Below, piece after piece: positions 1 to 26,216 of a DNA stretch of 64,000 nucleotides. The notes below the pieces were generated by a model, which saw nothing but the letters and a program-made list of their open reading frames with translations, was not told the origin of the DNA and made no database searches. The DNA is from a virus (lineage: Duplodnaviria; Caudoviricetes), in IMG/VR virus record IMGVR_UViG_3300011832_000025. One strand, given 5' to 3'. The translations under genes were made by a program, and so were the position numbers. Positions within the stretch are counted from its first letter, which is position 1. Every line of letters begins with the position of its first letter.

Positions 1-375
1 CAACATAATCCCGTTATCCAGCAAATCCGGCGCATGCCCAAAACAGTCACCAATTTTTTTGGGGATTTTATCGCCCAAGAAGAACATGCGTATTTTCAGA
101 CGTTTCCGGAGCGTTTGGCGTATATGTCCGAACAGGCCAGCCTGTTGTTGGGTTTTTTTGAAAGCAATGTCTTAACACAGGGAAGCCCACAAAACCGCAC
201 GGATGCGGCTGAGCTTCTTGCCCAGTTTTTTCAACTGCCGCAAGTAGCAAAGCCGTTGGCTCTTGCCCACAGGAACTACACCAAAGATGTGTTAAAAAAG
301 GGCGTCTCCCAACGCCGCCACAAAACTCGGGTGGAACGGTTTACTTCCACGCCCAGCGTCCAACCACTGGTTTGA
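1..375 (+). CDS. hypothetical protein, 5'-truncated by the window edge
   Basis: Frame is open from position 1 through the ORF 34..375 and is followed by a hairpin terminator. Confidence 0.6.
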   Translation, partial: QHNPVIQQIRRMPKTVTNFFGDFIAQEEHAYFQTFPERLAYMSEQASLLLGFFESNVLTQGSPQNRTDAAELLAQFFQLPQVAKPLALAHRNYTKDVLKKGVSQRRHKTRVERFTSTPSVQPLV

Positions 376-383
376 AAAGAGAT

Positions 384-413
384 AAAAAAACACCTCCACT
401 GTGTGGAGGTGTT
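384..413. terminator. bidirectional intrinsic terminator
   Basis: AACACCTCCAC-tgt-GTGGAGGTGTT hairpin between two convergent genes. Confidence 0.75.
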
Positions 414-417
414 GATG

Positions 418-2604
418 TTATTGTTTTTTACGGCTGGCTTTTTTCTGACTCGGAGGTTTTGCGCTGTCCCGTATTTGCGCATAAATGGGATGGCGTTTTT
501 TGGGGATGGCTTCGATTAAATAAGATGCTATGTTTGTAATATAACTTCCATAGGCGTACTGTGCTAATTCTTTAGTATTAACAGCTTGTTTTGAGTTGGA
601 TTGGCCCACATTTAAAATGATATTTCTCTTGGATAAAAATTCGTAATCATCAAAGTCGTCACCTTTAAATAAAGGTTGAAGAGGCTTCATGATGTTGACC
701 CACATGCCGTGGTGATTGTTAAGGCAATAACTTAAACCGCTGGAAAGACTATCTGCATTTAAATAGCCGCACAATGGATCATACGCTTCATCTCTGCTAT
801 GTTTTTCCAAGCTGTCAATGATATTATCTAATGATTGGGGCGGGGCTCCAAAGATTTCACTATCACGTATTGCTGCTAAAAAGGAGAAATCATTTCGTTC
901 AAGAGCTCTTGCTAGATTTTTTGCAATATTTAACAAAAGATCTTGTTTATCACTAAAGGTCAACGTGGATTGAATATCATATTTTTCAATTAGTCGCTTT
1001 TCTTCAGCTTTATCGTATTGATAAACACGTTTTTGTGAGGGCAAACTTTCGATACTGTCTTGGATATTTTCCAAGTTTTTGATGGTCAGGTATGCAGTGT
1101 GAAATTCCTTAGTAATGTTTGAACCTTCAAAGGTTTGCTCATGAATTTTAATTTTTTGAGTCAAAATTTTGCAACTGTTTGCAAGGTTTAACAGCCCTTG
1201 GATATGTGCATCACTGTATTCATTATTTTCACCAACCAGATGGGGAGGGAAATTGTACATGTAGTTTGAAATAGCGTTTGAGAGGGCTTTCAAATACGAT
1301 GTGAGTTTAACCTTGCCATCTCCATGGATGGAAATACACACCTGTTCATCGGCCAAGAAATCCACCATTGTTGTCAAATTTTGAAGAATATCCAAAGAGA
1401 ATTCTTTGAGCGGGTGGGTTGCGTTTTTTAGTTCTTCTTTGCGTTGATAAAAACCCAATGTGTCACACCCTAATGACGCCAAATTTGAGTGCAGAAGTGT
1501 TTCTGCTACATACGATGAAGGGTTTTGTTCACTCAAATAAAAAATTATGGGGTACAAGGAAAAAGCCTCAACTGCTTTTTGTTTTTGCATGTCATCCCAT
1601 TTGTCCCATCCCAATGTTTGGATTAAAGCTTTGCCATCAAATTTGCTTTTGTTTTGATTTTCAAGCAAATTCGTAATAGGGAAAAAACCTCCATGGAGAA
1701 TGTGGCTTTTAACACTGTAGGCGTGATATTCAGTTTGATATTCGGTTTGCTTCAAAGTTAATTCCAAAGCGTGGCATATTTTGGCCAATGTGCTGAGCTG
1801 AGATTTATTGGATATGTCGGTGTTTAAAGAAGCCGCACAAATATATATTTCCTTTGTCTGGCTGTTGATGTAACACGAATCGGATCGATAAGATCCGGCA
1901 ATTGTACCGTGTGCCATGGATTGAGAAGAGCGTGAATCAATAACTGCCGCTACAGTTCCGGTTGTTTCATCCAGTCGATAAATTACGGTTTTTTTGCGGG
2001 CTGAAAGTTGTTCCACAAGATAGTGGCCTAACGTTCCATACATCTCTTTAAACTGTTTGTTTTTGGAGCGAACGTGATACTCTTTAATATCTTCCAAATG
2101 ATTTTTTGATGCTACATACATCCACAAGTCCGCCAGTTGCTCCAATCGCACAGAAGCCATACACTCATCAATGATATCGACCCCTAAAACTCCTCCAAAG
2201 ATAGAGCGAATATATTCTTTATCTTTTTGATTTAAGTCGCTGTATTTGCTTTGATGAATATTGCGATACCCTTCGTTTTTAAAAAACTCTTGCAAAAAAA
2301 CATGAGCATCAAATTGTGCCTGATCATGGCGCGCAACAATTCCTTTTAAAACAGATTTATAAGATGCCGTTTTATGTTCAAAACCAAGTTCTAGATAGTG
2401 GAACAATGAAAGGTCTTCTTCACTGAGTTCATTTTGTAAAGATGAACTGTCAAAAAATTGGTATTTATTTTTAAGTTTTATGTATTCTGACTTTAATTTT
2501 GCGAATTCTGTTTCGGAAATATCCCCACTGTTTGCAGAGAGAACCGTTTTCTGGACTTTGAGGGCAAGCACTTGTAAATCATGTGATATATTCGATTTTG
2601 ACAT
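418..2604 (-). CDS. AT-rich hypothetical protein, 728 aa
   Basis: Long ORF with lower GC than its surroundings; no family recognised; basic C-terminus KKASRKKQ. Confidence 0.85.
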   Translation of the reverse strand: MSKSNISHDLQVLALKVQKTVLSANSGDISETEFAKLKSEYIKLKNKYQFFDSSSLQNELSEEDLSLFHYLELGFEHKTASYKSVLKGIVARHDQAQFDAHVFLQEFFKNEGYRNIHQSKYSDLNQKDKEYIRSIFGGVLGVDIIDECMASVRLEQLADLWMYVASKNHLEDIKEYHVRSKNKQFKEMYGTLGHYLVEQLSARKKTVIYRLDETTGTVAAVIDSRSSQSMAHGTIAGSYRSDSCYINSQTKEIYICAASLNTDISNKSQLSTLAKICHALELTLKQTEYQTEYHAYSVKSHILHGGFFPITNLLENQNKSKFDGKALIQTLGWDKWDDMQKQKAVEAFSLYPIIFYLSEQNPSSYVAETLLHSNLASLGCDTLGFYQRKEELKNATHPLKEFSLDILQNLTTMVDFLADEQVCISIHGDGKVKLTSYLKALSNAISNYMYNFPPHLVGENNEYSDAHIQGLLNLANSCKILTQKIKIHEQTFEGSNITKEFHTAYLTIKNLENIQDSIESLPSQKRVYQYDKAEEKRLIEKYDIQSTLTFSDKQDLLLNIAKNLARALERNDFSFLAAIRDSEIFGAPPQSLDNIIDSLEKHSRDEAYDPLCGYLNADSLSSGLSYCLNNHHGMWVNIMKPLQPLFKGDDFDDYEFLSKRNIILNVGQSNSKQAVNTKELAQYAYGSYITNIASYLIEAIPKKRHPIYAQIRDSAKPPSQKKASRKKQ

Positions 2605-2792
2605 GTTGTAGTTCTGAGTTTAGGTTCATAAATTTTATCATGGAAGAAAATATTAACAATATTTAGTATCGATCGGTGGTCAGTACTCTCCATATCCGTG
2701 ACCCACCTCACAGTTTTTCAGTGATCCCACCAACCCCCACGCCAATACCCATCAACGTTCCCCATAGCCCACCGTCACCCCAAAAGAATTCA

Positions 2793-2821
2793 TTGACACA
2801 CCACCCCATCCTCTGTAAACT
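2793..2821 (+). promoter_or_regulatory. sigma70-type promoter for a noncoding transcript
   Basis: TTGACA-N17-TAAACT; no credible protein-coding gene follows before the terminator at 3589. Confidence 0.7.
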
Positions 2822-2827
2822 CATCGT

Positions 2828-3612
2828 GCAAAGAAAATAAAGGACTGTACTCACCCTTTATGGAATTTGCATTGTACAGTACATGGATATGCTGGACCTA
2901 AAAGAAACAGATGGGTTGTATCCAGGCGTTTCTGTTGTTTTCAAAAATGATTGAAGTTAAGTTATCGATGTTGTTATGGCTTATGCCGTGACATAAGTCA
3001 CGATAACGCTAACAACATACTATTTTTGAAAACAAATAACACCGCGCGTTTTTGATGAAAGTGTATTGATATAAAATTTTACTTGACTTTTTTTCAATCA
3101 AGTTTATATTTTTTATGTTGAATAAATTCAACATAAAAAACCTTTGGCGGAGAGCGTCAACGGAATACCGATAATTGTATTATCTGTATAAAATAGCGCA
3201 TGAGGATTCAGTGTTGCACATAAACGGTTGACCCAATTAAAGCAACAATTGAAACCATTGAGGGTAAAGCAAAATACCGCTGAAATTCTCTAAAGAATTG
3301 AAAAAGCAACCGGCTTTTTCATGTCATGCGTAACAACGCGTTATCCCGGATTTGTTTTATAGATCCTGGTAAAAAAAGTAAGGATTATGAAATAGTTTGT
3401 ATTGTTTTTTAAATTATTTCCTATTTTTATCAATGCGGTTTACAAACATGAATTTTGATGGATAAAATGAGTGCTTGTACATGAAAAACTCTAGGAGGCG
3501 ACCAACCGGATGAAAGCGAGCGTCTCCCAGCTGCCCACGCAGTCTGTGCCCACGGCACGTGAAAATGGTTTTCCGGATCTGAGTACACAAGGCGCCTCTG
3601 GCGCCTTTTTCT
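2828..3612 (+). ncRNA. candidate large structured RNA (~780 nt) containing an ORF-less copy of the TnpB-element scaffold
   Basis: Bounded by a promoter and terminator; closing stem TGTACTCA (2846-2853)/TGAGTACA (3580-3587); many hairpins whose G-U pairs work only on the + strand. Confidence 0.6.
2870..3490 (+). mobile_element. non-autonomous, ORF-less relative of the TnpB element at 22158-24061
   Basis: 2866-2936 matches the reverse complement of 23996-24065 at 62/71 nt; same order of helices; right boundary inferred by analogy. Confidence 0.6.
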
Positions 3613-3616
3613 TTTT
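3589..3616 (+). terminator. intrinsic terminator
   Basis: AAGGCGCC-tct-GGCGCCTT followed by a T tract. Confidence 0.85.
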
Positions 3617-3680
3617 GTTGCCCTCCCACTCCCCTCCCAATTCGTGCTACACTAACGGCATCTTCCCCAAAGATCTCTGT

Positions 3681-4142
3681 ATGGACGCCGTCTTTTATTT
3701 TCACTTTTACGCCCAGAACAATGATTTTACACCTACGCGTTCGTTGGCGTTTTACGCCACCAATATTACAACACCGTGGGACGAATTGGATTGGAAAATG
3801 GGCTACTCCGAAGGCGACATTGAAGCCCAGTACGGCGAGCACTGTGGATTGGTGGGGCTGACGATTGAATCAAGCGGAACCAAACTCATTGGGTACAGCA
3901 CTTCAAAAATCCATGAACAACAACGCGGGCCGCTGATGAACGTGTGGCGCGCCACGTTTTTGGAGATTGACCCCGGCTGTGTGGTCGGTGAGGTGTATGA
4001 TGTCACAGATATGGTTGGCACCGTGGATATCTATCGATACGTGAAAGACGCTTACGAACACCAGCAAGCCCAACAATTGCGTGGCACGTTAAACGCACAC
4101 ATCACAACCTGTGCCTCACCCACCGCCACGAAGAAAATGTAG
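3681..4142 (+). CDS. tandem paralog family A, copy 1 (C-terminal KKM tail)
   Basis: MDAVFYFHFY start shared with the neighbours; extended -10 GTGCTACACT at 3644. Confidence 0.85.
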   Translation: MDAVFYFHFYAQNNDFTPTRSLAFYATNITTPWDELDWKMGYSEGDIEAQYGEHCGLVGLTIESSGTKLIGYSTSKIHEQQRGPLMNVWRATFLEIDPGCVVGEVYDVTDMVGTVDIYRYVKDAYEHQQAQQLRGTLNAHITTCASPTATKKM

Positions 4143-7208: not shown

Positions 7209-10200
7209 ATGTATTTCAATAAGACAAATACCATGAATGTGGAAACCATTGTAAAAAATCACTTTACCCCTCAAGAAACTGAAGTCGTGGGGGGTAAACT
7301 CCCCGCATTCCAACGCTTTTCTCAAACATCCAAAGCGGCGTGGGCGAGAACCTCGGAAGGCGATTTTGTTTCGATACTGGCACGCGAATTGGCGGTTCTT
7401 AAAATTTTCAATGGCGTGACACAAATTGTTGTTCAGCGCATGCAAAATGCACAGTTGCTGGGGTCAGACGTTTCTGTCGGGGCAACGATAATGGAAAGCG
7501 AATTTCATAAAATGACCCAAACCGTGTTGTTCGAAATTCTCAAGCATTTGCGAACCGTAAATTTTGTCGCGGATCATAAAATTGCCAATACGTTTATGGA
7601 AGAGGTTGCTGAAGTTGCCCAAAAGCATGCAAAACCAATGTCGAATTTTGCGCCGGCTCCCGGAATAAAAATGGTTCCCGTTGCGGATTTTGCGTCCCCG
7701 CTGGATTTAATGAACGCAAACAATAATCCGTTTTTCAACCAAATACTCACCGAAAGCCTGGCAACATTTTGCAAGCAAGCCTCGGAAGAAAAAATAATAT
7801 CCGCTTGGAATTTTCTCAGCGACACACTTCCCCGTACAATTCAACGCTATGAAATATGTTTGGCGGAATGTGCGTCCAACAACTTATTGGATGTGGTGAA
7901 GAATAATATCGATTATGTTGGAAAGGCGTTGAATTTTAACGAACACGATCATGCGGTTTTTTTATTCTTGCGCCGCATGTCTGCTTCCCGCCCTGAATTT
8001 GAAATAGCGTTTAAGAGTTTTCAAGAAATTTTGTTGTCGGCCGTGGACAACGCAAGCGAAGTTCCCAGCGGCACCACTCAAAATCTTGTACGTGCAGAGA
8101 GCAAACTCTCCACATTGGGGCTGTTGGAACCCGCAAAAAAGATGGAGTCATCTCGAGTGTGGGGTTTAATGTCGCAGCAGTTTATTCAAGCGACCGAAAA
8201 ACAGTACGACACTCCTTCTGAATTGTTCTTCCAGTTGTCGGAAAAAACATTGCAGATTGTGCCCCGTAGCTCCGATTTGGACGTTCAACATTTCAAACAC
8301 ATGTCCAACGATTTTAACAATTTGGCCATTGCATTAGCCTCCCACACACCATTAAAAATTTTGCTGTGTGGCAAACAAGGTTCGGGCAAGACTGCTGCAT
8401 TGCACACAGCCTTACCGACACAGCGTGCATTTGCTGTTCTTGAATCATCTGAGGTGGCAAACGCCAAAAATGGATCGTTGAAAAAGATGCGAACCTACGC
8501 GCCACTGTGTGGAAATCCTGTATTGCTCATTGATCAAGCTGATGAAATTATTGCGAAGGAAAAAGACGGAACAACATCCTTAATCAAAGAACAAACAGAT
8601 ATCCCGACCACCGAAGTGTGGGTGGTGAGTGATCTTAAAAAAGTCCCCGCTGAAGCCATGAGCGCGTTTGATTTGGTGGTGACCATTCCTCAAATGCCGT
8701 TGGACCAACGTCTGCAATTGTCCAAGCAGTTGTTCGAAGACACCTACGTTGCCGAACAAGTGGCCAAAACCTGCGTCACCCCCAATGAAATTCAACGCCT
8801 GCACCATTGGTCACAAATCAGTGGGCAAACACAATGGAAAGAATTGTCAATTAAAGCCAGTGGGTTGCAACAAGCGTTGGTGAAAGCGGGAACCAGCAAT
8901 CAAGAATTGCCCTTGACCGTTGTCTCCCCCAATGAAAACACCGCGGGGTTTGAAAACGTGGTGGGTTGCGACGGGATTGTGCAACAAGCTCGCGCCGCCA
9001 TTTCCTGTTTCCGCAACCCGGAAAAATTCAAAAAATTGGGCGGCAAAGTGCCCAAGGGGTTATTGCTCACCGGCGCACCCGGAACCGGGAAAACCCATCT
9101 GGCCCGGGCCATGGCCCACGAGGCGGGGGTGCCGTTGGTGTGCGCGTCGTCCTCGGCCTTGGCCCGCAACCCCGAACTGATTGGGGTGGCGTTTGAAGAA
9201 GCCAAACGCCAAGCGCCGTGTATTTTATTCTTGGACGAAGTGGACGCCATTGGCGCCACCGCCGAACAAAGAAACGGCGCGTCGGCCGATCCCCAGCGCC
9301 AAGCCATTCTCAACCGTTTTCTGGTGGAACTGAGTGGTTTTGATGATCTGTCGCAAGTGTTGGTGATCGGCGCCACCCACCGCCCCCATGTGTTGGACGA
9401 TGCTTTGAAGCGGTCGGGGCGTTTGGGCTGGAATATTGACTTTGAGCAACCGCGACGCGACGCCCGCGAGCAGTTGTGGAGGCATTACGGTCAAGACATG
9501 CAAACCTCCAACATCGATTGGCCGCGGGTGGCGCGGATCTCGGTGGGGATGTCGCCCGCGGACATTGCCGAAGCGGTCAACCGTTCCGCGCTCAACGCCG
9601 CCATGGACAACGCCGATTGCGTGGAAACCAAACACCTCATTCGCGCCGTGGACCAAGTGGCCTGGGGCATTGAGGGCACCCGCAATTGCACCGACGCGCA
9701 AATTTACAACACCGCCGTGCACGAGGCGGGGCACGCGTTGTTGGTGTGGGCCCACAACATCACCGTCATGGACCAAATTTCGGTGAAACCCTCCAACGGC
9801 CATTTGGGATTTGTCCGCCATTTCCGCGACGAAGACACGATTGGAACGACCCACGCAGAGATGTCCCACCGCGTGGAAATAGCTTTTGGCGGGTTGGTGG
9901 CCGAGGAAGTGGTGTTGGGGCAACGCTCCGCCGGCGCGGTCGCGGATTTGAAACAGATCCGACGCACAATTGCGCAAATGTTCCGCGACGAAGGAATGGG
10001 GTCAGCCGTGATGGGCGCCGACTGGATCACTGCATCCCCGGATACGCAAAAAATGATCGAAGACGAAGAGTTGGCGTTTGCCAAAAAGCGCAAAGACAAT
10101 GTGATCAAATTGTTTGAACACAACAAAGCGTTGATTAAAATGGTGGCCAATCAATTGGTGACTCACCGAGAAATGTCTGGGGAAGAATTTGAAGCGTTTT

Positions 10201-19897: not shown

Positions 19898-20794
19898 TTA
19901 TATTTTGTGCCGGCGCAATGGGACAGATGTTGATAGATCTGAAAGGTTCTGGTGCAAACTGCGTTTTTCAATCAAAGCTTGTAAACGAGGATAGGATTGC
20001 GCCAACCTCCGCACCCGCTGACCGGATTTTGGGAACCACTGCTCCAGTTGTTCATCAGTAACCATGGCGTTCAAATTTTTCAGTACAGATGCGTGGCGGC
20101 ATGCGATTGATTTTTTAACAACAGCATACCCATCAAGTTTAGGTAAAATGTCAGAGTACAATTTCAAACCATCATCATACAACAGACCTTGTACGGTTTG
20201 ATATAAAACATCTTTAGCCATTTTTCGGTTTGTGGCCGCGCTTTTGCTCAATTCCTCCAATCCCTGCAGAAACGCCATAACAGAAACAATGGGTTGATCC
20301 TGGTGTCCATTGTGGCGCATTTCCTCTTCCATTTCCATAAAAACGTAATACATGCGTTCAATTTCGTGAGGGGGCCAATGCTCTTTGGGGCCTTTCAATA
20401 AATTGCAAATCAAACGACACCGGGCTGTATTGGGTTGTGAAGCATGGAGAAAATATTGCACCAAATCGGTTACGTGACGGGCTTCAATCAATGTGGGGGG
20501 TAAAGCGGTGTACAAAGCTAAGGCCGCCCCCATAATGTCTTGATCATGCTTCCACAAATCCCATCGCGAAAAAGTATCGTGATGACACAGCATTGAAAAC
20601 ATATCATAAGCGGTGTCGTTCTGGGAATCATCCAGAGGGTATCGAAGCGCTGAAATAATCTCACCGCATAGTGCGACAATGTTTTCTTTTTTGAGTGCCA
20701 AATCATTTTTGGAATGAGAAGCGTTCATCATTTGCTTTATGAGTTGAGCACGCAGCGAAGAAAGCGCAGTGTTGGGCACGGATGGAGTAGACAT
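19898..20794 (-). CDS. hypothetical protein (RRHKI tail)
   Basis: 298-aa ORF. Confidence 0.8.
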   Translation of the reverse strand: MSTPSVPNTALSSLRAQLIKQMMNASHSKNDLALKKENIVALCGEIISALRYPLDDSQNDTAYDMFSMLCHHDTFSRWDLWKHDQDIMGAALALYTALPPTLIEARHVTDLVQYFLHASQPNTARCRLICNLLKGPKEHWPPHEIERMYYVFMEMEEEMRHNGHQDQPIVSVMAFLQGLEELSKSAATNRKMAKDVLYQTVQGLLYDDGLKLYSDILPKLDGYAVVKKSIACRHASVLKNLNAMVTDEQLEQWFPKSGQRVRRLAQSYPRLQALIEKRSLHQNLSDLSTSVPLRRHKI

Positions 20795-21664: not shown

Positions 21665-22210
21665 GCTGCTCCAATCCGAAATTTATAATTCAATCAATAT
21701 AGGAGAACTGTTATGCTTCGTGGAACCCGTATGCTGTTGGGCACTGACGCCACCCGTTTAAACGATTTGTCAATCTCGTTGCGGAGCTCACTTCATCAAT
21801 GAAGGGCTGCAAGAATTGATTGTTCCCGCTATTTGGGAAAGCCAAACCTTTCTCAATAAGTTAGGCAAAGAAAAAGAAAATCAAATGTGGACCTTCACCG
21901 ATAAGGGCAACCGTGCGTGTTGTTTGGTTCCAGAAATTACAGGCATTGTGCAAGAAACCTGGCGCAACGAATGGTCCAAACAAATGAAAGGGTTATCGTT
22001 GTTTTACATCGCCCGGTGTTACCGCTACGACCGCCCTCAAGCCGGGCGTTACCGCGAATTCACCCAAGTTGGGGTGGAACTGTTGGGTAATCAGGCTAAT
22101 CCTATTCGCGCCTTGGAGATGCTTGAAACGGTGGTTCAACAATATTGCCCTCATTGGTCATTTCCATTCGTTCTCAATTGAGTGATCCATTCACACAATC
22201 CAGAACGTTT

Positions 22211-23872
22211 TTAACCACTTTGAACAAGTGGAGAGATGGTTTTATGTAAAGACTTGGGTGTTGTTGTACGTTTTTTCGGTTTAATGGGGTTTGCCGAAAA
22301 TACAACGCCCTGCCTTCCTCTCACGACCGACCCGGCCGCCAGACAATCGCTGTTGTTCTGTTGGAAGAAATCGCTGTTGTTCTGTTGGAAGAATTCTTCC
22401 AACAGCCGCCAGCCCTCCTGCCAGAGGTTAAAAGCTGCAGTATTGTCGCGAACATGGCTTGTATTGCAGGCGGTGCACACCCACGCGCGATCTTTGAGCA
22501 ATAAATGTTTGTTTTTTTCATGGCAAGCGGTGTTGGAACACCGCTTGCTCGAGGGAAACCATTTGTCCACGAAAATCAACGAACGGTTGTACCACGCGCA
22601 TTTGTATTTCAACTGTTCAATAATTTTGCCCATGCAAGATTCGTGCATTCTGCGCCGGAAACCCCGGCTGAGCGCTTTGGCCATGCCGTACAGCATCAAT
22701 GTTTCCACAACAATGGTGTGGTTTTCCTGCACCAGTTTGGTGGTGAACTTGTGAATGGCGTCGGTTTTGCGGAACAGTTCGTGCAAATCCAACACCGCGA
22801 TATGGTCTTGCAGTTTTTCCATGTTGCGGGTGTTTTTCTTTACGCCTTTCTTACTTAAGAGAGCCGTGGCGTTTTTCGGCCAGGCGCCATTGGCGTCGCG
22901 CACAATTCCATTGGATATGTAAAGTTGTTCTTGTTTACGAGAATACGCGCGTTGGTATTTGGTTTTGCGTTGCTCATGGTGTTCGTTGGAACGCAAAACC
23001 TCTTGGTTGAACAACGAGAAGGTTGTTACACCATCGCTTGTGGCCACCGCCCCGGACACCACCGACAAATCCAAAGCACCCACGCCCTTTCTCTCGGAAT
23101 TAAGAATGGTGTCCGTAGGGTCATCGGGGTACTCGATGAACTTGTGCGCTTTACGCTTGATCAAAGAGTGTTCCACATTGATCACGGACAACGAAATCAA
23201 CCACACGTTTCCTTTGCGTTTCACGGTCATGGAGGAGAGATCCCCAACCACCTCTTCGGTCAGAACAACCTTAACCGGACCCAATCCTGGAATGGATACC
23301 GTTTGGTTGTTCGCATCAATCGGGTGTTTGTGGCGGGGATCCACTTGAAAGGTGGCCCGTTCGTTTTTGCCCAAACGTTTGCGAAACACCGGTTGTCCCG
23401 GATCGTCGGAGCGTTTGCCCGCAACCCCGTCGTAAAAATTGGACCAGGCGGTTCCCAAGTGACGTAAGGAATTGGTTAAAACCGTGCGTGGGCACTTCTT
23501 CAGAAACGCCATATTGGTTTGATCAGCATGGACTTCAAAACCGTCCTGAGAATGCTGTTTGATCACTTGGGTGAGAGTGTTGGACAACACGTTGACCGTT
23601 AATGTTTTGGGGGAAGAGATTTCTTTACCCAAAACATCTTGATCTACAGTCTCAGGCTTTTCGTTGTCTGAAGGAGCAACATTACCTGTGCTATTTTTCC
23701 GTGATATTTCGTAGTGGTTTTGCTGAGACAACGCCCAATTCCAGACAAACCGCCCACACCCAATCCATTGCCGTAACAAAGCAGCTTGCTCCACCGTGGG
23801 ACACAGTCGAAACTGCTGTCCTTTGCACAGCAGTTCTTTGTTGCGTCGTTGGGATTTGCTTATGGTTGTCAT
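22211..23872 (-). CDS. tnpB: RNA-guided endonuclease TnpB (553 aa)
   Basis: HTH_OrfB-like FRLCPT..Q...RFVWN; RuvC-I ALDLS; RuvC-II VVETL; zinc finger CSNTAC...CTAC; RuvC-III RDNTAAFNL. Confidence 0.92.
   Translation of the reverse strand: MTTISKSQRRNKELLCKGQQFRLCPTVEQAALLRQWIGCGRFVWNWALSQQNHYEISRKNSTGNVAPSDNEKPETVDQDVLGKEISSPKTLTVNVLSNTLTQVIKQHSQDGFEVHADQTNMAFLKKCPRTVLTNSLRHLGTAWSNFYDGVAGKRSDDPGQPVFRKRLGKNERATFQVDPRHKHPIDANNQTVSIPGLGPVKVVLTEEVVGDLSSMTVKRKGNVWLISLSVINVEHSLIKRKAHKFIEYPDDPTDTILNSERKGVGALDLSVVSGAVATSDGVTTFSLFNQEVLRSNEHHEQRKTKYQRAYSRKQEQLYISNGIVRDANGAWPKNATALLSKKGVKKNTRNMEKLQDHIAVLDLHELFRKTDAIHKFTTKLVQENHTIVVETLMLYGMAKALSRGFRRRMHESCMGKIIEQLKYKCAWYNRSLIFVDKWFPSSKRCSNTACHEKNKHLLLKDRAWVCTACNTSHVRDNTAAFNLWQEGWRLLEEFFQQNNSDFFQQNNSDCLAAGSVVRGRQGVVFSANPIKPKKRTTTPKSLHKTISPLVQSG
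22345..22392. repeat. 24-bp in-frame tandem duplication in the tnpB 3' end (FFQQNNSD x2)
   Basis: AATCGCTGTTGTTCTGTTGGAAGA occurs twice in tandem. Confidence 0.95.
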
Positions 23873-24313
23873 GCACAGATATTACGCAAAAATGCATCAA
23901 ACATCAAGAATTTCTGTTCACAAAGTGGTTAAAAACCGTGGAAATGGAGCTTTGTTTGCATTTCATAAAAAAATGGATCAAAAATTTTTTATGAAAACGG
24001 AAACGCCTGGATAAAACCCATCTGTTTCCTTGGGCCCAGCACGTCCATGTGCTGTACAATGCAAACCAAAGCCAATGTCCAACGTGGGTTAAGTTATTAT
24101 GTGGAGAACGGGTTTGAGGTGGAAGCCTCCTGGTTGGGGGCGCAAAAACAAGTGGCCGGCGGTGGGGCTTACGCCGAAGGGGTCGGCTGGGCCATTGGCT
24201 TGGATCGGTTGGATTTGGCCCGGCAAACCCAAAAAACATGTTGAGGTTGGATCCCCAAACCCTTGTGTTTCCGCTAAACCTCGTTAGTATTAACATTTAT
24301 CCTAGGAATACCC

Positions 24314-26106: not shown

Positions 26107-26216
26107 TATTGTCTGGCTCAGTTAAGCCTCATTGCAAGCTCAAAACATATGGTCTGTTTGGGTTGTCTTTAACAGATTGTGCGCAATGGTCGGTGCAACC
26201 CCGACGGGAATAACCA
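26107..26216 (+). ncRNA. tRNA-like RNA with an enlarged anticodon arm
   Basis: Acceptor TATTGTC/GGGAATA (6/7 pairs), TG-GCTCAG D-arm start, T-arm GTCGG-TGCAACC-CCGAC, discriminator A and encoded CCA. Confidence 0.55.

Follow-up and report, generated by a model that had tools for sequence, protein, structure and literature searches.

A segment of about 70 nt near the start of a viral DNA stretch recurs, inverted, beside a tnpB gene about 19 kb away, raising the question of whether the first locus is a mobile element without a gene of its own, a guide-RNA gene that serves the distant TnpB in trans, or a part of the host sequence around it. The window, i.e., the whole 64,000-nt stretch that was analyzed (IMG/VR record IMGVR_UViG_3300011832_000025; Duplodnaviria, Caudoviricetes), appears to be part of a very large replicon, phage or plasmid-like, with its own aminoacyl-tRNA synthetase and ankyrin-repeat genes. 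An initial annotation, made from the letters alone, had proposed the first two of these explanations for positions 2866-3490, on the basis of a 62/71-nt match between 2866-2936 and the reverse complement of 23996-24065. Pairwise alignment agrees with this match, and a search within the window returned it at 88% identity over 67 nt (2866-2932 against the reverse complement, 24065-24000; E ~1e-11), with no other significant partner in the window for 2840-3520.

The TnpB element and its empty site

The distant copy, against which the gene-less sibling has to be compared, comprises the following features:

22154..24057, minus strand: TnpB element of 1904 nt (GTACAG...GACCAA), delimited by the homology limits in contigs L001-L004 and by the empty site in L102
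22211..23872, minus strand: tnpB open reading frame of 553 aa, from Pfam matches and the family alignment
22154..22350, minus strand: omega-RNA-type scaffold, with 13 covarying pairs in the consensus fold and a score of 225.6 bits with covariance model R1

Homologs of this TnpB occur on long metagenome contigs at 83-89% protein identity, and in four of these contigs (L001-L004) the DNA similarity has the same two limits, within surroundings that are unrelated. In the window, the element lies antisense within a mini-HisRS gene, splitting it into parts at 21816-22153 and 24058-24243 that together would encode a protein of ~190 aa lacking an anticodon-binding domain; the intact orthologs (P0130-P0136) comprise 176-194 aa. 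One of them, P0130 in L102, reads ...TATTGCCCCCAAATGCAAACC... and represents the empty site, while the window reads ...TATTGCCCTCA, the element and then AATGCAAACC..., and neither junction shows bases that are duplicated or shared. Removal of 22154-24057 in silico restores ...YCPQMQTK... exactly, and the vacated site is GCATT+TGAGGGCAATATTGTTGA. An IS607-type element was rejected, as it should display one core dinucleotide common to the two junctions and the empty site, whereas the junctions CATT/GTAC and CCAA/TGAG have none in common with the empty site CATTTGAG.

The open reading frame matches HTH_OrfB_IS605 and Cas12f1-like_TNB above the Pfam cut-offs and OrfB_IS605 at 23 bits (cut-off 30.5), and D268, E390, D476 and four cysteines are invariant in the family alignment. 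Among species genomes, the only matches were cyanobacterial TnpBs at 26-30% identity, and no relative of the protein was found in the viral contigs. A crude regular-expression motif scan of the window and of the family and flank loci found no Y1 (HUH) TnpA. The tnpB gene is bracketed by a perfect inverted repeat (22207-22222/23921-23936, 16/16). One of its arms lies in the omega-RNA region and the other upstream of a promoter-like box that was read by eye ahead of tnpB; by eye, the 16-nt repeat is also kept in the other TnpB copies.

Two related loci showed peculiarities at their right ends. In L002 (4600-4630), the stem of the right-end hairpin is that of L001 and the loop is its reverse complement (TTCCATT vs AATGGAA), as if flipped. 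In L098 (5760-5860), whose contig carries bacterial housekeeping genes including secA and pilP, a TnpB relative of 52% identity is followed, directly past its right end, by ...CCATT/G and a left-end-like hairpin, GATTAT-GGGAC-ATAATC, which may mark a second element in tandem.

Ends, limits and distribution of the gene-less sibling

The sibling element occupies positions 2874-3494 on the plus strand (621 nt; GTACAG...CTCTAG) and carries no protein gene. Its left end and surroundings contain the following features:

2793..2821, plus strand: host promoter-like site, TTGACA-N17-TAAACT, of the leader that holds the insertion (consensus match only)
2866..2873, plus strand: left flank, TTTGCATT, which contains CATW, lies outside the element and is present in the empty allele of L015
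2874..2936, plus strand: left end common to the TnpB family, 63 nt, from similarity and the consensus fold
2874-2897, plus strand: left-end hairpin 1, with loop ATGGAT
2903-2933, plus strand: left-end hairpin 2, with an inner stem at 2912-2916/2920-2924
3495..3510, plus strand: right flank, GAGGCGACCAACCGGA, which begins with GAGGCGACC; AGGAGG is created at the junction, ahead of the ATG at 3510
3589..3616, plus strand: terminator-like hairpin of the host leader, ahead of the gene starting at 3681

Contigs with or without the element were reached via close variants of the neighboring 728-aa gene. One of them, the 120-kb contig containing L015, holds the empty-site allele that had been named as a check in the initial annotation: exactly 621 nt of the window are absent from it, with 97% identity to the window up to 2874 and 90% from 3495, and its junction reads ...TTTGCATT followed directly by GAGGCGACC... 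(in a fuller read, ...GGAATTTGCATTGAGGCGACC...). Apart from one ambiguous G, this junction is base-exact; the G was assigned to the element because the analogous empty site of the TnpB element in L102 is unambiguous. The first base of the sibling is the G of GTACAG, identical to the left boundary of the TnpB element. The limits proposed earlier need shifting by a few bases, as TTTGCATT belongs to the flank and the true right end lies 5 bases beyond the proposed one. The suggested TTTG(C) flank or TAM has to be replaced by CATW (here TTTGCATT), and any guide would start at GAGGCGACC (3495) rather than at CTAGGAGG.

The target motif adjoining the left end has the consensus CATW in all six independent insertions: GCATT precedes the sibling, the TnpB copy of the window and those of L001 and L004, while TCATA precedes the copy in L002 and GCATA that in L016. 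Both left-end hairpins are kept in 6/6 aligned sequences in the consensus fold. The compensatory change that had been noted between AGAAAC/GTTTCT and GGAAAC/GTTTCC is real, the closing pair of hairpin 2 being G-C in five of the six sequences and A-U in the sibling; as a single event, it is weak evidence. The further pairing claimed for GACCTA/TGGGTT is absent from the consensus fold, where TGGGT pairs with ATCCA.

For both the sibling and the TnpB copy, nothing but the element distinguishes the occupied from the empty allele, and the target site is not duplicated. No end-to-end inverted repeat was found; the sibling ends in GTACAG and CTCTAG, and the right end of the family is GACCAA. Subterminal hairpins are clear in the TnpB copies, and the sibling has both of them, with the same loop, although they are weak as DNA. 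The lack of duplication and of terminal inverted repeats, together with a short fixed target at the left end and subterminal hairpins (weak in the sibling), conforms to the pattern of IS200/IS605 elements.

Two side observations concern the target motif. A 70-kb contig (L097) encodes two distant TnpB relatives; a few hundred bases in front of both genes lies TTTGCATT followed by G (9715-9730 and 20155-20170), which suggests that a CATW-type target rule may extend to the wider TnpB family. Within the window, a tRNA-like sequence at 26107-26216 contains ~47 extra nt directly after a CATT in its anticodon stem; this extra piece includes the 8-mer TGGGTTGT, also found in left-end hairpin 2, possibly by chance.

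Occupied alleles were found in L005, L006 and L010-L012, all of them at one insertion site, the only one documented for the 621-nt element. They are identical over 2590-3540 save for a 2-nt indel in an A-run in L012, and the occupied strains equal the window from about 250 to 4000. Since they are identical, they are uninformative about selection acting on the element, and for the same reason the cargo offers no covariation. In comparisons of the window with related contigs, strain divergence is patchy throughout. In L008, the sibling-specific left end is present at the same site, with 2790-2931 96-100% identical and the adjacent gene only 74% identical at the DNA level, a mosaic suggesting that the block was exchanged as a whole through recombination. 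Two independent assemblies, L008 (1-325) and L013 (1-326), both break at the equivalent of window position 2930, where the shared left end stops; such breaks are expected behavior at a repeat. A search with the left-end pattern gave no match in the viral contigs and a single one in the metagenome contigs, which is another TnpB copy (L016), and the phage and plasmid collections contain no match to 2600-3700 or to the element alone.

The element lies in sense orientation between the host promoter-like site at 2793-2821, for which L015 has the equivalent TTGCCA-N17-TACAAT, and the terminator-like hairpin at 3589-3616. A 210-aa open reading frame called from 3510 runs through this hairpin and is lost in L012, whose gene is called from the ATG equivalent to 3681; this indicates that 3510-3680 is probably leader. 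The true start of the downstream gene is thus probably 3681, with 2828-3680 as leader. The insertion lengthens this leader by 621 nt, supplies a promoter-like site (3439-3468) that faces outward ahead of the junction, and changes TTGAGG to TAGGAGG, placing AGGAGG (a consensus match) 9 nt before the ATG at 3510.

Interior and right end of the element

Beyond the shared left end, the element contains the following features:

2935..3035, plus strand: long hairpin with a perfect 14-bp closing stem, 2935-2948/3022-3035
3058..3075, plus strand: left arm of a long-range inverted repeat with partner 3424-3441 (imperfect, 18 nt, 78%)
3083..3110, plus strand: internal promoter-like site, TTGACT-N16-TATATT, facing the right end (10/12, consensus match only)
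3109..3140, plus strand: perfect 15+15 palindrome, TTTTTTATGTTGAAT AA ATTCAACATAAAAAA, overlapping the -10 box of the internal promoter-like site
3141..3440, plus strand: AT-rich cargo forming several hairpins, for which no relative was detected
3424..3441, plus strand: right arm of the long-range inverted repeat, 14/18 matched with 3058..3075
3439..3468, plus strand: outward promoter-like site, TTTACA-N18-TAAAAT, overlapping the right-end hairpin (10/12, consensus match only)
3452..3468, plus strand: right-end hairpin, ATTTT-GATGGAT-AAAAT, 26 nt before the end

The layout that had been described as common to both copies stands in its order of parts, its long hairpin and its terminal ATGGA-loop hairpin, and fails in its closing helix. 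The long hairpin (previously placed at about 2933-3041) is predicted with a pair probability of ~1 for the stem 2935-2948/3022-3035, and the claimed long stem has a pair probability of ~0.37 at 3062-3071/3428-3437. The closing helix (3048-3057/3480-3489) has a pair probability of 0.02 and a G-G mismatch inside. The sibling's imperfect inverted repeat occupies the relative position that, in the TnpB copy, is taken by the perfect 16-nt repeat on either side of tnpB.

The terminal hairpin with an ATGGA loop was located at 3452-3468. Its loop, GATGGAT, matches the right-end loops of the family (AATGGAT, GATGGAA), and the 621 nt contain no ATGGA other than those in the loops of the two end hairpins, one in each. 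A comparable right-end hairpin arose by chance in 88/20000 shuffles. Except for this loop, the right terminus of the sibling is unlike that of the family. The hairpin is weak as DNA and longer as RNA through G-U pairs; as single-stranded DNA, the right-end stretch folds at -3.5 kcal/mol in the sibling vs -13.2 kcal/mol in the TnpB copy, and left hairpin 1 is likewise weaker in the sibling, suggesting that the element may be poorly mobile or dead.

The element has a G+C content of ~33% (read off the sequence), compared to 42-49% for the adjoining 1-kb stretches, and contains no open reading frame longer than 41 aa. A tblastn search with 129 proteins, comprising TnpB relatives and relatives of the neighboring 728-aa gene, revealed no tnpB remnant in the element and gave noise only, and a decayed tnpB was rejected. 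The cargo has no relatives in Rfam, phages, plasmids or family loci, and local alignment of the element interior with all family spacers and right ends remained at background, except for a module shared with L016 that is described at the end of the next section. The plus strand of 3141-3494 folds better than shuffled sequences (z = -3.75), compared to z = -1.49 for the minus strand, and its minimum-energy fold equals the centroid; this strand bias is a modest hint of structure at the RNA level. The palindrome at 3109-3140 could be an operator or the 5′ hairpin of a transcript.

Mobility, competing readings and known systems

The stretch at 2874-3494 is probably a non-autonomous, PATE-like element of the IS200/IS605 type, moved in trans by a predicted Y1 TnpA that would recognize the two ATGGA-loop hairpins and cut after CATW. 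The suggestion in the initial annotation that it is a non-autonomous member of the family is borne out by the empty allele in L015, the left boundary and CATW motif shared with the TnpB element, the right-end ATGGA hairpin and the absence of an open reading frame or tnpB. The element would move, or would once have moved, as single-stranded DNA by peel-and-paste, with a Y1 (HUH) TnpA supplied in trans binding the hairpins at both ends. Its interior of ~500 nt would be unrelated AT-rich cargo and no shrunken tnpB or omega RNA, perhaps captured through use of a surrogate right end. Because the element lacks the family guide scaffold, the resident TnpB would be unable to re-cut and restore the vacated site, and losses such as that in the L015 allele would stay uncorrected; the absence of TnpB-driven restoration fits the existence of a clean empty allele. 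Given its position in an operon leader, in sense and 16 nt ahead of the first ATG, the element would probably act mainly on the expression of the downstream six-gene array.

That the sibling is instead a gene for a trans-acting guide RNA, whose transcript into GAGGCGACC would be loaded by the TnpB of 22211-23872 or by another of the replicon, leading to cleavage of the vacated CATT+GAGGCGACC, appears very unlikely. This reading predicts GCATT+GAGGCGACCAACCGGATGA as the target. Its geometry does fit: the internal promoter-like site faces the right end, the plus strand of 3141-3494 folds better than shuffles and the minus strand does not, and the terminal hairpin with the family loop lies 26 nt ahead of the end. 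Moreover, PATEs encoding omega RNAs used in trans have been described (PMC10055086), where gene-less ISGst relatives in Geobacillus stearothermophilus "often encode omega RNAs". However, R1, a covariance model derived from six right ends of the family, assigns 225.6 bits to the cognate TnpB copy and does not exceed 5.7 bits anywhere in the sibling when filters are off. Two scaffold blocks that do not vary even among relatives whose proteins are 52-55% identical (GCGGCCGGGTCGGTCGT and GACCAA at the 3′ end) are absent from the sibling, its right end aligns with every family right end at background, and the window contains no second TnpB-like gene. The noise-level R1 score and the missing scaffold indicate that the sibling is not a guide-RNA cassette of this TnpB's type, and the slight chance that it retains reflects a very divergent scaffold, since R1 rests on only six sequences. 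A broader version is also improbable, namely that the ~380 nt from 3083-3110 to the right end might form a self-promoted structured RNA that reads into the flank with the geometry of a transposon guide and a scaffold unrelated to that of the resident TnpB, acting for an effector outside the window or as a regulatory cargo RNA.

The two remaining alternatives deny the element its present mobility. It may be a dead chimera, in which recombination or a one-ended event fused the left end to foreign DNA, with the L015 difference reflecting one old event and later block exchange. The weakened end hairpins, the single known site and the patchy strain divergence are compatible with such an origin, and in L008 the segment of 96-100% identity over 2790-2931 beside a gene at 74% is what block exchange would give. 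Against a chimera, the L015 allele lacks the element precisely to the base on either side, leaving no more than 1 nt of microhomology, which clean excision or insertion explains more readily than illegitimate deletion does; the loop of the right-end hairpin is also retained. We regard this origin as unlikely, while giving it some weight because L008 points to whole-block exchange. Far less credible is the proposal that the locus is an immobile host non-coding RNA or regulatory leader and that the 63-nt match represents a motif at the RNA level that also occurs in the 5′ region of the TnpB element. The sense orientation between the promoter-like site at 2793-2821 and the terminator-like hairpin at 3589-3616, as well as the better folding of the plus strand, would suit a host RNA. 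L015, however, retains promoter, leader and terminator and lacks exactly the 621-nt unit, whose left boundary coincides with a transposon boundary set independently in L102. In the TnpB copies, moreover, the motif lies upstream of the promoter-like box (by eye, in the family spacer alignment) and would not be part of the tnpB mRNA. A group I intron or IStron was also rejected: there was no Rfam match in 2700-3650 at E values up to 10, or in the whole window at the gathering score, and the end bases do not fit.

As a PATE-like element, the sibling belongs to a known kind, the gene-less IS200/IS605 elements, and is no new kind of system; it stands out solely by its size, by cargo that is unrelated and by a right terminus that is not the family's. 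Gene-less IS200/IS605 derivatives (PATEs) have been described in Haloquadratum walsbyi (PMC3119063), and such elements are mobilized in trans (PMC10055086, PMC3119063). Like PATEs, the sibling is hairpin-rich, lacks a protein gene, has one end in common with a tnpB-carrying IS of the same genome and inserts without duplication beside a short target, with movement in trans presumed. It differs from them in that only the left end (88%) and the right-end hairpin loop are shared, the right terminus being unrelated, and in that it consists mostly of cargo without relatives and has one known insertion site. With PATEs and stand-alone cassettes that encode omega RNAs, it shares an internal promoter-like site facing the right end and a structured plus strand with a final hairpin and a short tail to the transposon boundary, but it has neither the family scaffold nor the invariant blocks.

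In anatomy, the sibling also resembles the TnpB-only (IS1341-type) elements themselves (22154-24057 and those of L001-L004 and L016), with which it has in common the 63-nt left end, the first base, the CATW target and the order of parts: left end, variable palindromic spacer, repeat arm, promoter-like site, cargo, repeat arm, ATGGA hairpin and a tail of ~25 nt. The sibling differs in lacking tnpB and omega RNA, in its other right terminus and in its G+C content of ~33%. Gene-less derivatives also occur among IStrons (bioRxiv 10.1101/2023.11.20.567912), which, like the sibling, are non-coding and structured, have IS605-type ends and lie in sense within a transcription unit. An IStron should have a ribozyme core, a U preceding the 5′ splice site and a G closing the intron; here, no group I intron was matched, the flank upstream does end in T but the last base of the TnpB copies is A rather than G, and the TnpB copy of the window is antisense in its host gene.

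The locus provides a clean natural case, with base-exact occupied and empty alleles for both a gene-less element and its TnpB transposon partner. It also indicates that an end shared with a TnpB element does not imply a shared guide RNA, which calls for caution in the annotation of "orphan omega RNAs". For annotation, the gain would be a corrected start for the downstream gene and a putative TAM (CATW) for this TnpB.

A smaller unit is nested in the spacer next to the left end:

2959-3016, plus strand: 58-nt module forming the core of the long hairpin, with an inverted copy at L016:968-1025

The two inverted copies are 90% identical (z = 30 against shuffles) and differ by two compensatory double changes, GTTATCG/CGATAAC vs GTTGTCG/CGACAAC and GTGAC/GTCAC vs GTAAC/GTTAC. 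In L016, the module also lies in the left-end spacer of a TnpB copy, and both loci have the layout a-b-hairpin-hairpin-a′-b′ (L016:951-1030 vs window 2957-3016). In comparison with L002, the module of L016 corresponds to a 57-nt indel bounded by ACATTG repeats, i.e., adjoining CATT, which could stem from deletion by slippage in L002 or from a very small insertion. The module could be a tiny mobile or invertible unit in its own right.
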